Below are positions 1 through 32,000 of a stretch of 32,000 bases of DNA, piece after piece. The notes beneath the pieces were generated by a model, which searched no databases, had not been told where the DNA came from, and worked only from the letters and a program-made list of their open reading frames with translations. This stretch comes from Candidatus Peribacteria bacterium (GTDB lineage: Bacteria; Patescibacteriota; Gracilibacteria; Absconditabacterales; Absconditicoccaceae), in contig CP060225.1 in assembly GCA_023898485.1 (NCBI GenBank), positions 412,824 to 444,823 on the forward strand, read 5' to 3'. A program made the translations under genes and the position numbers. Position 1 is the first letter of the stretch, and each line of letters opens with the position of its first letter.

Positions 1-265
1 TAGCGAGCTCTCTCGTTGGTGTGAGGATGAGTGCTTGGGGATGTTTGAGACGGGCATTGACCTTCTCGATAAGTGGAATACCAAATGCTGCGGTTTTTCC
101 TGTTCCTGTTTGTGCTTGTCCTATGACATCTTTGGTCGATGCAAGGAGGAGTGGAATACATGCTGCCTGGATAGGTGACGCGTTTTCAAATCATTTTTTG
201 CGCAATGCGGCAAGTGTGACCTCAGAGAGTCCGAGGTCGGTAAATTTGGTACGATTTTCTGTCAT
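1..265 (-). CDS. DEAD-box ATP-dependent RNA helicase, N-terminal part (gene runs off the window start)
   Basis: Minus-strand translation from the ATG at 265-263 gives [24 protein letters not shown][TGA=G][55 protein letters not shown]. It contains the Q-motif, Walker A (AQTGTGKT) and motif Ia (PTRELA). The in-frame TGA at 191-193 sits on the conserved Gly of the Q-motif region. Confidence 0.9.
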
Positions 266-476
266 ATGAAAAAGATGTTAGTATAAAAAGTATACGAGCA
301 TACGAGTGTACAAGATTTTTTATGTTTCGTTTCAACGTTTGGGCGTTTCAACAATTCACCACTATCGCACGCGGAAGGAAATAATGCGCGCAAATGGGAG
401 TTCTGTCACGGAGCACTATTTCGATGAGTCGAGCATAGTGATTGATTGGGTAGTTTGCAAGGGGTTTATTCATCTC

Positions 477-504
477 TTGCAATCATGCCATATGCGATTA
501 TATT
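477..504 (+). promoter_or_regulatory. sigma70-like promoter: TTGCAA (477-482), 16-nt spacer, TATATT (499-504)
   Basis: Hexamers read directly from the sequence, about 40 nt upstream of the ATG at 547. The same TTGCAA -35 hexamer recurs upstream of several other genes in this window. Confidence 0.45.
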
Positions 505-546
505 TGTTCACAGTGAAATGTGTTTTACTCTCTCCTTCTTGGCACC

Positions 547-1053
547 ATGAACAACCGTCGATTATTAGCATTGGGAGCATTACTCAGCATTGTACTTGCT
601 ATTGTCCTTTTCATCAATCCTGTAGAAGGTGCTCTAAGCATCATACTGTATCTTGGTATTCTCCTCTTAGTGTCTGGTATTCTCCTTGTAGTCAGTTGAT
701 TTAGGGGCCAGGATATGAAAGCGCCACTGCTGGTGAGTGGCTTATTTACCTTGGTTCTCGGTGTAGTATTTTTGACTCGCCCTGCTATTAGTGTTGAACT
801 TTTGGCAATCTTTTTGGGTATGTGGGGTGTCATCGCTGGTATTGGAACGCTTGTTTTCTCTTTCGATGTTGCCAAAAAAGTATTCACACATCGATGGTGA
901 TTCGTTGTCATTGGTCTCGTGGAATTAGTCTTATGAGTGATCATTATCAATAACCCTTTGGCTACCACTGTGGCTGTGACCTACCTCATCGCTGCCAATT
1001 TTTTGCTGTCGGGTATTATTTGGTTGATTATGGCTTTTCATAAGAGAGCATAA
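547..1053 (+). CDS. HdeD/DUF308-family small membrane protein
   Basis: MNNRRLLALGALLSIVLAIVLFINPVEGALSIILYLGILLLVSGILLVVS[G]FRGQDMKAPLLVSGLFTLVLGVVFLTRPAISVELLAIFLGMWGVIAGIGTLVFSF..HRW[G]FVVIGLVELVL[G]VIIINNPLATTVAVTYLIAANFLLSGIIWLIMAFHKRA. This is the repeated-TM architecture typical of HdeD. Three in-frame TGAs (e.g. 697-699) join track ORF 715..900 to its flanking sequence. TAA stop at 1051-1053. Confidence 0.75.
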
Positions 1054-27925: not shown

Positions 27926-28699
27926 ATGCTCCTATCATCTTTTCTCTCCTCCATCGGCATGTCCGACAAAGAAATCGATATCTATCGCACCGTCGTTGAG
28001 CGCCACAAAACGACACCCGCCATCGTCGCAGAACAGTTGGGTCGTGAGAGGACGTCCACCTACAAGATGATGAAAAATATGGTCTGATCAGGGTTTTTGA
28101 GTACCACCCATGAGCATGGGACGACATTTTTCTTGGCAGTAGATCTTGCTATCCTCCAGCAGCGTTTCGAAACTCAACGCCAATCACTCAATACGATTGC
28201 AGACTCCTACGACGACATCCTCCACGAATACGAGTCAATCCAGAGTGCGCATCAGTTCCGTACGAGTATCCGTCTTCTCTCGGGTACGTCTAGCATCCGC
28301 TATGCATACCACACGATGAGCGAGATCATAGCACGTGAGTGACTTCGCTATATCACATGCATAGCTAGTCATACCCTGGACATGATGAGTGGTGGTGATC
28401 CTGTGTTGCAAGAGCTCTATAGCGGATTCTTCTCATCACTCCACGATCAAAAAATCACCGTCTCCAGCCACCTGGGCCAATGACTCTGACTGATGGAAAG
28501 ACTCCAGCATGCCCTGACACTCGACGCGATCTCCGAGATGCCCTACGCCAACAGTGCGACCCACGTACGGATAGTCGGGTATGATATTTTTCTCCTCCTC
28601 TTCACGGCCGATCCACAAGTCATCCATATCCACAGCCCTCAAGTTGCGGGCCTCCTGATGTTCGTTGCTGAACAATTAGAAAAGGAGGGAAAATCATAA
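27926..28699 (+). CDS. TrmB-family (winged-helix) transcriptional regulator
   Basis: MLLSSFLSSIGMSDKEIDIYRTVVERHKTTPAIVAEQLGRERTSTYKMMKNMV[G]SGFL.. is a TrmB-type N-terminal wHTH. Four in-frame TGAs join track ORFs 28097..28342 and 28493..28699 in one frame. TAA stop at 28697-28699. Confidence 0.7.
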
Positions 28700-28729
28700 T
28701 CCCGTAAACTCGTATGCTTGTATACCTCC

Positions 28730-30976
28730 CTAAATAAGTGGTGCCGCAAACTCTTCTATCTTCTCTGTGACATCTGCTTGCTTGGAGACTGCTTCCTTTG
28801 CCTCAGCGATCGAACGTGAGTATTTGCTACGTGAAATTTCGTACAATTCTTGGATATAAGTCGGTGATATTTTCGCGTCAGGTGTGTAGAGCGTCTTGAG
28901 TGAGAAAGGATCCTTGACCTGACCCTGGATGATCGTCTTGCAGTATAGTTCACGTATATTGAGATTGGCAATATCGTAGTCATCTACAAAGGGTGAGAAG
29001 TGCTGTTTCATATAGATCGCATCCTCCGACGATATTCTAAAACTCATCAGCGTACCCACGTTTCCAAACAGTGATTCAGACAGCTTGGTCGGTATCTGCC
29101 TGATGAACTGGTGTGCGACAGACAGACCTAGTCCGTACTTACGCGCTTCGGAGAGGATCTCGTTAAACGTGTCGGTAGCAAAGTTTTGAAACTCATCCAC
29201 ATAGAGGAAAAAGGGGATACGCTCCGACTTGGACAAATTTTGTCTACTCATCGATGCTTGGAAGATCTTGGTCACGAACATTGCTCCCAAAAAGCCCATG
29301 ATATCTTCTTGAAGTTTGCCTTTGGGGAGTTTGACAAGGAGGATTTTGGATTCATCCATCATCTCACGGAAATCAAGTTTATTGTCAGGAGAGGCGAAGA
29401 TATTTTTGAGGATGTCGATACTGAGCAGCTGACCTACTTTATTCAAGATCGGCATGATAGCCTCCGTATTGAACTGCTGTGACCGACCTGCAAATTCATT
29501 GGTCCAGAAGTTGCGCACGACGTCATCATTGATAGAGTCGATCATATCATAGCGGAAATCTTTGTCTGTCAGCGCACGGATGATGTCAAACAGTGTCGAA
29601 TTCGGTTTGTCAAGGAGCGCTAAGAAGATCATACGAAGTACATGTTCCAGTTTTGCATTCCAGTTGGAGCCAAAAAATTTATTGAAGATATCGATAAATC
29701 ACTTCGCCAAAATTTGTTTGGACTCCGTCTCTTTAACATCCAGCGGATTGAGACAAAAAGGATATTCTTCATCCGTCGGATCGAAGATAATCACATCATC
29801 TTTGCGTTCAGGTGGAATGTGAGTGATAAGCTCACTGATCAGATCTCCATGTGGATCAATCACACCGATACCTTTGCCTGCTTGGATATCGCGAATCATC
29901 AGCGACAGGAGAAACTTCGATTTACCCGTACCAGTCTTACCCACGACGTAGGTATGTCTCAGTCTATCCTCATCATAGACCGCGAGTGGCACACGAGTCG
30001 AGCGATAGTCTGAGATACCCAGTGGAGTCATCTCACGAGGTACGTTGACAGGCACGATCTCACCGTTTTCCAGTGTCTTATGAGGTAGTGACGGAACTCC
30101 AACAGGGACACCGAGCTTCTTGCTCTTCACCGTCAGAAGAGAAGTTTCTGTATCAGGACGCGCAGGGAAGTGAAATATTTCTGCTATCTCATGGCTCGTC
30201 AGGTTGATAGGTGCCCGATTACCATCACCTTTAAGGAGAGTTTTGAGTGCTCCAGTTCCCTTGGTCGTACGCAGGAGAAACTGATTATATGGAATATCCT
30301 TCAGTACCAAAAATTTATTAAATACCGATCTCAGTTTACCGAGCGCGATATCCTGTGTCGATGCTTGCGCGATGATCGCTATGCGAGTCGCGAAAAGTGG
30401 CTTAATACGCTTTTGTGCGAAGAATGCATGACCTTTCTTCTTCCATTCTTTGGGCAGGTTTCTCATCATCATATATTTGGGAAACTGCGCCCTGAGCATC
30501 CACCTAAACGCCCGATAATCAAATTTTTGACGCAAAAAATGAGTCAGACTCTCTGTCTGGAGCGGCGTAATTTGGACGATATAACTCACCTTCTCGGTAG
30601 CGATATCTACTCCTTCAAGTGATCTCAATATACTGTCAATAAAAGCACTATCATCATTCCTATCTTCTGCAAAAGGGAAAAATCCTCCATTCTCGAGATA
30701 GACTTCTCCTACAACTGTTTTGTTGCTCTCATAGTTCCAGATATTCTTATCATCGGGGACGATCTGAAAATCATTAAAATCTGTATAGAACTGACTCTCA
30801 AAACTTGCATATGTCGATGGACTCGCATCGAACGAGTACAGAAGCTCACCCTGATTGGCATGCAGACCGAACATCATGGTCTGATTGGTCATCGTTTTTT
30901 GGATATCATCGAGAAAATCTTGGAACGACGACTGCGTCTGACGAAAACCATGATATATCTTGATAAGATGAGTCAT
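28730..30976 (-). CDS. FtsK/HerA/VirD4(TraG/TraD)-superfamily P-loop ATPase (T4SS coupling-protein-like, no N-terminal TM segments)
   Basis: ~300-aa unique N-terminal domain, then ..HTYVVGKTGTGKSKFLLSLMIRD..GIGVIDPHGDL.. (Walker A) ..IPFFLYVDEFQNFAT (Walker B) ..YGLGLSVAHQFIRQ... A single in-frame TGA at 29699-29701 (..QILAK[G]FIDIFNKFF..) joins track ORFs 29699..30976 and 28730..29632. TAA stop. Confidence 0.8.
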
Positions 30977-31093
30977 CAGAAAAGAAGAAAAACAAACAAT
31001 ACAATAAGGTTTAGTATACAGATGATAAGTAAAAAATGCAAGAAAAGAGGCTGGTTTTTTACCTCCGTTATTGCATCATTACTATAGAAGTAG

Positions 31094-32000
31094 CTATTTC
31101 ACCCTAAAATGTTCCTTGAGTCTTTCTAACCAGTGTTTCCTCGGGAGTGGTAATCCATACTTGACGAGGAAATCGTATTCCATCTTGATCACTCTGTAGA
31201 CGTTTCACTGCTCATCTCTGATTACTTTTTTCAATATCGACGGATCTATGGTCCAGTCTCCATTATCATCAAATCATTCATAATTTCCAAGATCTGCGAC
31301 TTCCACCACATCCATCCACTCTGGGACATCGACAGCGATCGGTTCATCTCTTCGGAGGTATCATGCTGCAGTGACTTCTTCTTTGGTGAAAGTATCGTCT
31401 ATCAGGTAAGCAGCGGTGTCGTTGAAGTAGAAGGGATTCATAGAGCCAGGGAAAAACTTCCCAAGATCACCATCCTTTTCCATCTGAGTAAATATTTCGT
31501 CGACTTTATCATATCGTTCTTCTTTGGTGTATTGGCGATTGAAGATGCAGTAGGACTTGTTTTTAAGACCAATGCAGCCGAGGCAGTAGGAACAAGCATC
31601 CATATCAATACAATAAAAAAGATTATAACACTTATATCATCCGAACAGAAAACAATACAAATGGGACGAAAGTGTTCATGCCTGACATGTTGCATAAAAA
31701 TTATCTGAATCAATACCAATATCAATTCCATCATAAAAATTATTACTTCATGTATTTCATCATTCAAATAAAACAACATTCCTCGAATCTGCTACATCAA
31801 AAGCAAGATACCCATTAGTAACATTACGAGAATTATTAACACCCATACAATTATTCAAATCTTGAGATCAAATATTTTTCATATTAAATTTCGCAACATT
31901 TCACCACTGGTCAAAAGATGCCTTATCTTCCAAGATAGATATTTTTTTAGTCAGATAGTCTTCTTTTGCATATTGAACATTGGCGATGCAATATTGTTGA
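31094..32000 (-). CDS. Cys-rich zinc-ribbon repeat protein, paralog 2 (C-terminal ~300 codons; gene runs off the window end)
   Basis: ..QQYCIANVQYAKEDYLTKK.. ..MDACSYCLGCIGLKNKSYCIFNRQYTKEERY.. ..VYRVIKMEYDFLVKYGLPLPRKHWLERL.. is colinear with paralog 1 (second module plus the C-terminal FY/LPLPRKH motif). Many in-frame TGAs. TAG stop at 31094-31096. Confidence 0.7.

Follow-up and report, generated by a model that had tools for sequence, protein, structure and literature searches.

Probable reading of UGA as glycine and of CGA and CGG as tryptophan in a 32-kb stretch of Absconditabacteria-type DNA

A 32,000-nucleotide stretch of contig CP060225.1 (positions 412,824 to 444,823 of the forward strand; the whole stretch is called the window below) raises the question of which genetic code its genes are written in, as its open reading frames (ORFs) under NCBI translation table 11 are fragments separated by TGA. 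A first-pass annotation had proposed that TGA is a sense codon for glycine in the window. Comparison with homologues and with DNA of close relatives makes it very probable that the window is chromosomal DNA of an uncultivated Absconditabacteria (SR1)-type bacterium of the candidate phyla radiation (CPR)/Patescibacteria, in which UGA would encode glycine, CGA and CGG would encode tryptophan, and only UAA and UAG would terminate translation.

In-frame TGA and its decoding

Gene models were built with TAA and TAG as the sole stops, which yielded 30 models with 9,188 codons, covering 86% of the window (GC content 42%). In-frame TGA occurs in 25 of the 30 models, in a total of 107 codons and alongside no in-frame TAA or TAG, and all 29 coding sequences that can be closed end in TAA (18) or TAG (11), in agreement with what the first-pass annotation had stated for the genes that it could close. 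ORFs of at least 200 amino acids (aa) occupy 31% of the window when called with table 11 and 81% when TGA is taken as sense, while the control reassignments of TAG and TAA give 37% and 46%, respectively. Pfam domains run unbroken across the TGAs with full profile coverage, as for HI0933_like (profile positions 2-243 of 244, over 12 TGAs); Mur_ligase_M (1-199 of 200), YchF-GTPase_C (1-83 of 84) and the RNase J beta-CASP domain are also matched across TGAs. The C-termini predicted with TAA/TAG stops coincide with those of homologues. Under table 11, the coding-strand ORFs of the HI0933 gene are pieces of at most 75 aa. The fragmentation of the table 11 ORFs is real and systematic, not an error, and the full-length domains together with the number of affected genes bear out the proposal that TGA is read as sense and that almost every gene model is altered by it. 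The TGA sites that had been quoted as examples were all located correctly, on the minus strand:

191-193, minus strand: TGA in the DEAD-box helicase, KK[TGA]FENASPIQ
2180-2185, minus strand: TGA pair in the HI0933 flavoprotein, ISG[TGA][TGA]RCN
1610-1612, minus strand: TGA in the HI0933 flavoprotein, GLS[TGA]PA
1157-1159, minus strand: TGA in the HI0933 flavoprotein, TG[TGA]YNLQ
23592-23594, minus strand: TGA in YchF, ATG[TGA]WNQ

Reading through the last of these restores the canonical C-terminus of YchF, as had been proposed. The raw presence of TGA, and nothing further, would fit a reading in which these codons are real stops, to be explained by pseudogenes, assembly errors, selenocysteine or programmed readthrough. 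Such a reading is deemed extremely improbable: the 107 TGAs stand against no TAA or TAG in genes that are supported by homologues, they hit housekeeping genes (RNase J, YchF, the MurE-like ligase and HtpX), their number is far beyond that of selenocysteine sites, and the TGA position is kept in relatives at 31 of 51 sites. Moreover, the identical HI0933 gene with its 12 TGAs was found in three independent public assemblies, so that the TGAs are not sequencing errors. DNA of the window is present in SRR12358676, ERZ28656553 and ERZ27309361. Selenocysteine, pseudogenes and sequencing errors were rejected, as TGA alone is affected, its positions are conserved and the three assemblies agree.

For the amino acid at TGA, the codon was translated as X and the resulting proteins were aligned to homologues. 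A Codetta-style log-odds calculation, restricted to distant, standard-code-like homologues of three families (HI0933, RlmL and RumA), gave glycine +22.7 bits over 22 pooled TGA sites, as the sole amino acid with a positive value (lysine is next at -43.5, tryptophan stands at -56.4), and all control codons decoded as standard (among them GGN as Gly, TGG as Trp, AAA as Lys, CGT and AGA as Arg). When all codons were screened in the same three families, a real signal of reassignment was found at TGA and CGA only; the other codons with usable signal decode as standard, and AGC, GTT and CGG have too few or too variable sites.

At the level of single columns, the HI0933 TGAs at aa 48, 49, 173, 211, 239, 374 and 390 are Gly in all four PDB homologues, and eight of the 12 TGA columns are Gly in 35 of 35 homologues of low Trp content. 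The TGA in the DEAD-box Q-motif aligns to Gly in three PDB chains (CshA, DeaD), the MurE-like TGA at aa 339 (24923-24925) to Gly in E. coli MurE, and the RumA TGA at 5588-5590 falls on a column with Gly in 76 of 77 sequences. In the YchF proteins of eight recoded relatives from GTDB, 85 of 93 TGAs belong to columns whose Gly share in 36 standard-code YchFs is 60% or more. The earlier statement that the TGAs fall on invariant Gly positions stood for the 11 of 22 testable sites of the three families at which Gly is strongly conserved, but not for the remaining sites, which are variable columns, nor for the TGA site of YchF, which is a Ser/Gly column (S 22, G 14 among the 36 standard-code YchFs).

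Eight gene alignments to DNA from close relatives (loci L084-L088, with aa identities of 71-86%) allowed a comparison codon by codon. Opposite the TGAs of the window, the relatives have TGA in 31 cases and GGN in 13, a GGN of the window meets a TGA in 18 cases, and exchange between TGA and TGG amounts to 0-1 cases; as judged from these exchanges, GGN and TGA form one class of synonymous codons. The log-odds, the PDB alignments and the exchange between TGA and GGN bear out the choice of Gly over Trp or selenocysteine, and the tabulation of residues aligned to in-frame TGA, which had been suggested as a check, has homologues continuing past TGA, with Gly favoured.

Decoding of TGA as Trp, as in translation table 4 of Mycoplasma, would remove the fragmentation as well, and the copy of the HI0933 protein in the public protein collection (entry P0001) carries W at 12 of 12 TGA sites; the longest contig of P0001 stops near position 93 of the window. 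Among 119 database homologues, the conserved HI0933 TGA columns hold only G or W, and the W is confined to Trp-rich, Gly-poor homologues (41 of 119), because those relatives were translated with table 4 in the collection; at the invariant columns, all standard-code homologues have G. In addition, table 4 would raise the Trp content to 2.2%, or to 3.0% with CGA and CGG included, the codon exchanged for TGA is GGN, with 0-1 cases of TGG, and Trp falls far below Gly in the log-odds (-56.4 against +22.7 bits), hence this reading is given a next to negligible probability.

CGA and CGG as candidate tryptophan codons

With TGA as Gly and UAA/UAG as stops, the window agrees with NCBI table 25, to which the first-pass annotation had assigned the genome; the assignment does not extend to CGA and CGG, which are Arg codons in table 25 but behave as Trp codons in the window. 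The 30 genes contain 58 CGA, 12 CGG and 97 TGG codons, by which CGA and CGG would make up 42% of the Trp codons (70 of 167; CGA 35%, CGG 7%).

In the RlmL-type methyltransferase, the CGA at aa 49 (11536-11538) takes the place of the invariant Trp in the THUMP-domain motif NLWLR, in a column that is W in 107 of 116 sequences and in three PDB homologues, while the seven other CGA sites lie in F/L/Y/V/I/W/D columns, none of them R/K. At those seven sites the proteins of the closest relatives have W or R, and several window TGG sites are R there. The RumA CGA at aa 117 (5240-5242, CGGCK[CGA]Q, in the CGGCxWQ motif) corresponds to W in 74 of 77 distant homologues, and columns 183 and 305 of the same protein hold a W/R mixture inside the clade. 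In HI0933, the columns of the CGAs at aa 89 and aa 275 have W in 93 and 81 of 119 sequences, respectively. R-invariant columns of HI0933 are encoded by CGT, CGC or AGA in every case, and those of HI0933, RlmL and RumA together by CGT, CGC, AGA and AGG only. Over the 16 CGA sites of these families, none of which is on an R/K column, the pooled log-odds are Trp +1.1, Tyr -11.6, Phe -16.0 and Arg -38.9. In the alignment of the two Wzy_C paralogues within the window, CGA stands opposite I/L/V/M/F/Y/TGG and never opposite Lys or other Arg codons.

The eight gene alignments to close relatives gave the following codon pairs:

Window CGA, 36 pairs: in relatives CGA 24, TGG 9, CGG 2, Leu 1
Window CGG, 3 pairs: in relatives TGG 2, CGA 1
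Window TGG, 20 pairs: in relatives TGG 12, CGA 5, CGG 3
Window CGT/CGC/AGA/AGG, 150 pairs: in relatives the same group 128 (43 with a different codon), Lys 11, CGA/CGG 0

Among changed codon pairs, CGA and CGG exchange with TGG or with each other in 14 cases and with the other Arg codons in none, whereas CGT/CGC/AGA/AGG gave 0 and 43, respectively (Fisher p = 1.3e-13). From these exchanges, two synonymy classes emerge, {TGG, CGA, CGG} and {CGT, CGC, AGA, AGG}. For the invariant Trp of YchF, four of the eight recoded relatives have TGG, three have CGG and one has CGA, and the TGG of the window YchF that follows the TGA stands in a column that is CGA or CGG in all eight, specific to their clade. 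For CGG, the site at RumA aa 301 (5792-5794) is TGG, TGG and CGA in relatives and W in a PDB homologue from S. pneumoniae. CGA is almost certainly a Trp codon on this evidence, and CGG is likely to be one too, with the lower confidence reflecting that few CGG sites of the window are testable.

An unaltered table 25, with UGA as Gly, CGA and CGG as Arg, and the coincidences with Trp columns as true Trp-to-Arg substitutions, would explain the confirmed part of the code, and it finds a parallel in several BD1-5 Gracilibacteria (GC 0.35-0.53) with UGA as Gly, which keep CGA/CGG as Arg in the Codetta analysis (PMC8629427), the window having a GC of 0.42. Some CGA clusters of the second Wzy_C protein resemble basic loops (ALIR[R]AHE[R]K[R]), and the flanks of CGA and CGG are not Trp-like in hydropathy. 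Against it stand the -38.9 bits for Arg over 16 CGA sites, the restriction of R-invariant columns to CGT/CGC/AGA/AGG, the 14 swaps of CGA/CGG with TGG or each other, and the complete lack of crossings between the codon groups (0 of 36 CGA and 0 of 150 other Arg codons, despite 43 synonymous changes within the latter group), so that a plain table 25 is left with a very low probability.

In favour of ambiguous decoding of CGA and CGG as both Arg and Trp, an intermediate stage of reassignment, it can be said that comparative data reveal what selection tolerates and not what the ribosome inserts, and that ambiguity is, according to the authors of the 2021 screen, excludable by experiment only (PMC8629427); some CGA sites also have a polar context. 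The codon classes are fully separated in relatives, however, CGA occurs at invariant Trp positions where frequent Arg would harm (RlmL NLWLR, RumA CGGCxWQ), and a 42% share of the Trp codons is too high for a poorly defined codon. Ambiguous decoding is therefore regarded as very unlikely.

In the preferred reading, with CGA and CGG as Trp and UGA as Gly, the decoding machinery can be outlined from the literature on the clade. UGA would be decoded by a tRNA(UCA) that carries elements of glycine identity, for which G1:C72, C2:G71, G3:C70 and U73 are expected, and release factor 2 (RF2) would be lost; CGA and CGG would be decoded by tRNA(UCG) and tRNA(CCG) with tryptophan identity; Arg would be left to CGU/CGC, read by a tRNA with the anticodon GCG, and to AGA/AGG, and no tRNA(ACG) would be expected. 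The RF2 gene prfB is absent from the 32-kb window, which is uninformative at the scale of a window.

Several observations weigh against this reading. ARAGORN reported tRNA-Pro(GGG), tRNA-Leu(CAG) and tRNA-Leu(GAG) only in the window, with no tRNA(UCA), tRNA(UCG) or tRNA(CCG), and none of these three in about 170 kb of recoded relatives' loci (L001-L013, L018, L051, L081-L089, L153 and L156). Many CGA sites lie in columns in which distant homologues have V/I/L/F/Y and not W, which is why the positive Trp log-odds for CGA is small. CGG is aligned at a single window site (RumA aa 301), next to three reciprocal TGG-to-CGG exchanges, and its log-odds from distant homologues is uninformative at n=1. 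An alignment-free comparison of flank hydropathy between CGA/CGG and the other Arg codons gave no separation and a slightly contrary, unexplained trend, and ambiguous decoding in vivo is compatible with sequence comparison.

Known codes, relatives and consequences for annotation

Both recodings are already in the literature. UGA as Gly in SR1/Gracilibacteria has been known since 2013 (Campbell, 2013; Rinke, 2013, as cited in PMC8629427), while CGA/CGG as Trp was predicted computationally in 2021, when Codetta assigned both recodings to 10 of 10 Absconditabacterales genomes analysed, in which tRNA(UCG)/(CCG) are present and tRNA(ACG) is absent (Shulgina and Eddy, 2021, eLife, PMC8629427). A 2026 paper takes the combination as the accepted Absconditabacterales code. 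This code has the same UAA/UAG stops as the window and would share all three reassignments with it (PMC8629427), and the nearest relatives retrieved are SR1/Absconditabacterales metagenome-assembled genomes (MAGs) with the same use of CGA/CGG for Trp. The window is a divergent member of this already described kind of recoded bacteria.

The low GC content and the rarity of CGA and CGG that are typical of the described Absconditabacterales genomes are not found in the window, as listed below, where the window rates refer to all codons of a 32-kb sample and the published rates to Pfam-aligned codons of the ten genomes (PMC8629427):

GC: published 0.29-0.38; window 0.42
CGA per 10,000 codons: published 13-37; window 63
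CGG per 10,000 codons: published 1-24; window 13
TGG per 10,000 codons: published 35-76; window 106
AGA per 10,000 codons: published 231-321 (the dominant Arg codon); window 127
CGT per 10,000 codons: window 131

The shares of CGA and CGG among the Trp codons of the window (35% and 7%) exceed those of any genome tabulated in the 2021 screen. Higher-GC Gracilibacteria of order BD1-5, such as UBA1545 and UBA5532, also use UGA as Gly at a GC content like that of the window (0.37-0.43), but use CGA heavily as Arg (125-224 per 10,000; PMC8629427); the combination of GC and code in the window is distinct from that of BD1-5, since BD1-5 genomes of similar GC read CGA as Arg. Table 4 of Mycoplasma and Spiroplasma shares UGA as a sense codon with the window, the amino acid being Trp there and Gly here. 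Anaerococcus and RFN20 Bacilli have likewise moved an Arg codon of the CGN box to Trp, but only CGG is reassigned and CGA is kept as Arg, whereas in the window both would be reassigned and CGA is the commoner.

The YchF gene was used for a tblastn scan over one genome per GTDB species. Among the matches listed, the best relative is at most 60% identical in tblastn and at most 64% identical after correct translation; the top matches listed are recoded MAGs under the names SR1, Absconditabacterales or Peribacteria, the last of which seems to be a wrong label, followed by standard-code Gracilibacteria and Peregrinibacteria. The closest named matches of RumA are Absconditabacterales and Absconditicoccaceae, and those of HI0933 are 'Gracilibacteria'. 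In a neighbour-joining tree of the single gene YchF, the window is sister to a clade of the eight recoded relatives retrieved, to which it is 60-64% identical, with 64-93% identity among those relatives. Relatives closer than these (68-86% aa identity) were found in Logan and NCBI metagenome assemblies, on short contigs only. At this broad level, the placement of the window in an SR1/Absconditabacteria-type CPR bacterium by the first-pass annotation was upheld, the nearest relatives being recoded MAGs of that type. A metagenome scan with the RumA clade alignment yielded one clearly recoded locus and otherwise almost exclusively bacteria with the standard code, as it drew on family-wide patterns and a tblastn search that favours standard-code bacteria.

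TGA use declines with rising GC among the relatives, from 17-22 TGAs in YchF at GC 0.26-0.32 to one in the YchF of the window. It is possible, if rather doubtful, that the window belongs to a deep-branching sister lineage of the described Absconditabacterales, with a higher GC and with the change of CGA/CGG from Arg to Trp at its most advanced. If this were true, the reassignment would be older than the radiation of the group and would persist outside the low-GC regime that is thought to have enabled the CGA/CGG change, and the lineage would be the best natural material for testing codon capture against an ambiguous intermediate. With the window, a clade that has both types of reassignment gains a divergent member of comparatively high GC, in which the reassigned CGA is common and not rare; this bears on how sense-codon reassignments become fixed. 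To our knowledge, no other bacterial clade combines the reassignment of a stop codon with that of a sense codon.

The main value of the result is practical, in that the code applied to such genomes must include CGA/CGG as Trp. Table 11 shatters 25 of the 30 genes, table 4 puts Trp at 107 Gly sites, and table 25, which is usual for SR1/Gracilibacteria, still reads 70 of 167 Trp codons as Arg. Among the residues misread in this way are Trp residues with catalytic and structural roles, and in one membrane protein they amount to about 5% of the sequence. In the public protein collection, table 4 is applied to the organism of the window and to many relatives; P0001 is the HI0933 protein of the window in this form, and such entries also carry Arg at CGA/CGG. 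Protein families, predicted structures and phylogenies of CPR bacteria inherit mistranslations of this kind.

Two observations on relatives touch on annotation. MAGs labelled 'uncultured Candidatus Peribacteria bacterium' differ in their code, as L001 and L003 are UGA-recoded, with CGA/CGG at the invariant YchF Trp, while L010 uses the standard code, and the label is therefore not predictive of the code. At locus L087 (GCA_002754915.1, PDWI01106558.1; GC 0.47), the RlmL gene (68% aa identity in BLASTP) has no in-frame TGA and still has four CGA and three CGG at Trp-type positions, hence a gene of a recoded genome can pass a check for stop codons and yet be mistranslated.

Gene content of the window

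The features of the window are given below with their in-frame TGA, CGA and CGG codons.

2-265, minus strand: DEAD-box helicase, 5' part, running off the window; 1 TGA (191-193, in the Q motif); Pfam DEAD 1.7e-18
547-1053, plus strand: DUF308/HdeD-like membrane protein; 3 TGA, 2 CGA; PF03729 on the same gene in L081
1103-2326, minus strand: HI0933-like flavoprotein; 12 TGA, 4 CGA; Pfam 1.2e-70 over the full length; TGA sites include 2180-2185, 1808-1810, 1694-1696, 1643-1645, 1610-1612, 1205-1207 and 1157-1159, and CGA sites on Trp columns are 2060-2062 and 1502-1504 (all minus strand)
2327-2725, minus strand: Cupin_2 protein; 2 TGA
4441-4689, plus strand: RelB-like small protein; 1 TGA; gene call on L081, mapped to the window
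4892-6403, plus strand: RumA/RlmD-type 23S rRNA U5 methyltransferase; 7 TGA, 4 CGA, 1 CGG
7288-7578, minus strand: YjdM-like protein; 1 TGA, 3 CGA; PF03831 on L081
7689-7849, plus strand: tRNA-Pro(GGG) and tRNA-Leu(CAG), unrelated to the recoded codons
7882-8334, plus strand: VKOR; 1 TGA, 2 CGA
8349-9239, minus strand: HtpX / M48 protease; 6 TGA, 1 CGA; Pfam 3.7e-37
9940-10530, minus strand: 196-aa protein with two HxT motifs; 5 TGA, 2 CGA, 1 CGG; sub-threshold match to the 2'-5' RNA ligase superfamily
10555-11682, minus strand: RlmL/THUMP-type RNA methyltransferase; 4 TGA, 8 CGA; CGA sites on F/L/Y/W columns at 10846-10848 and 10822-10824 (minus strand)
11716-13230, minus strand: Wzy_C (O-antigen ligase-like) membrane protein 1; 13 TGA, 8 CGA, 1 CGG
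13281-14654, minus strand: Wzy_C membrane protein 2, the most densely recoded gene of the window; 11 TGA, 17 CGA, 3 CGG
15142-16002, plus strand: DsbA-like thioredoxin
16807-18762, minus strand: RNase J; 2 TGA; beta-CASP 5.5e-40
18813-19364, plus strand: O-methyltransferase-like protein; 2 adjacent TGA, 1 CGA, 1 CGG
20798-21571, minus strand: Cys-rich membrane protein; sub-threshold T4SS_pilin match
21571-22002, minus strand: YqeY-like protein; 1 TGA
22134-22221, plus strand: tRNA-Leu(GAG), an ARAGORN call
23496-24581, minus strand: YchF GTPase; 1 TGA (23592-23594)
24626-25939, minus strand: MurE-like Mur ligase; 3 TGA, 2 CGA (that at 25469-25471 aligns to Met)
26066-27712, minus strand: Cys-rich repeat protein; 3 TGA, 3 CGA
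27926-28699, plus strand: TrmB-like regulator; 4 TGA, 1 CGG
28730-30976, minus strand: TrwB/T4CP-like ATPase; 1 TGA, 3 CGG
31094-31999, minus strand: Cys-rich repeat paralogue, 3' part; 10 TGA, 2 CGA

The 196-aa protein (9940-10530, minus strand) has a TGA codon immediately before its TAA stop (...FG-TGA-TAA). The tandem Wzy_C paralogues are about 32% identical and jointly carry 24 TGA, 25 CGA and 4 CGG; under table 25, the second of them takes on loops that are falsely rich in Arg, for example ALIR[R]AHE[R]K[R]LLL, and with CGA/CGG as Trp it has a Trp content of 6.6%. The tRNA-Leu(GAG) at 22134-22221 is not reported by the Rfam tRNA model at its gathering score, while the other two tRNAs are. 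The MurE-like ligase consists of Mur_ligase_M and Mur_ligase_C only, and lacks the N-terminal UDP-MurNAc-binding domain, as its alignment starts at residue 86-88 of E. coli MurE.

The Cys-rich repeat paralogues (26066-27712 and 31094-31999) lie on either side of the TrmB-like regulator and the TrwB/T4CP-like ATPase. No Pfam family matches them above the cut-off, and the motifs common to both include CIFNQQYTKEEY and LPLPRKH. They may be parts of one type IV secretion or pilus-like module with the regulator, the ATPase and the Cys-rich membrane protein that has the sub-threshold T4SS_pilin match. VKOR and a DsbA-like thioredoxin occur alongside several Cys-rich proteins that are secreted or in the membrane, which suggests that this CPR bacterium forms disulfide bonds outside its cytoplasm.

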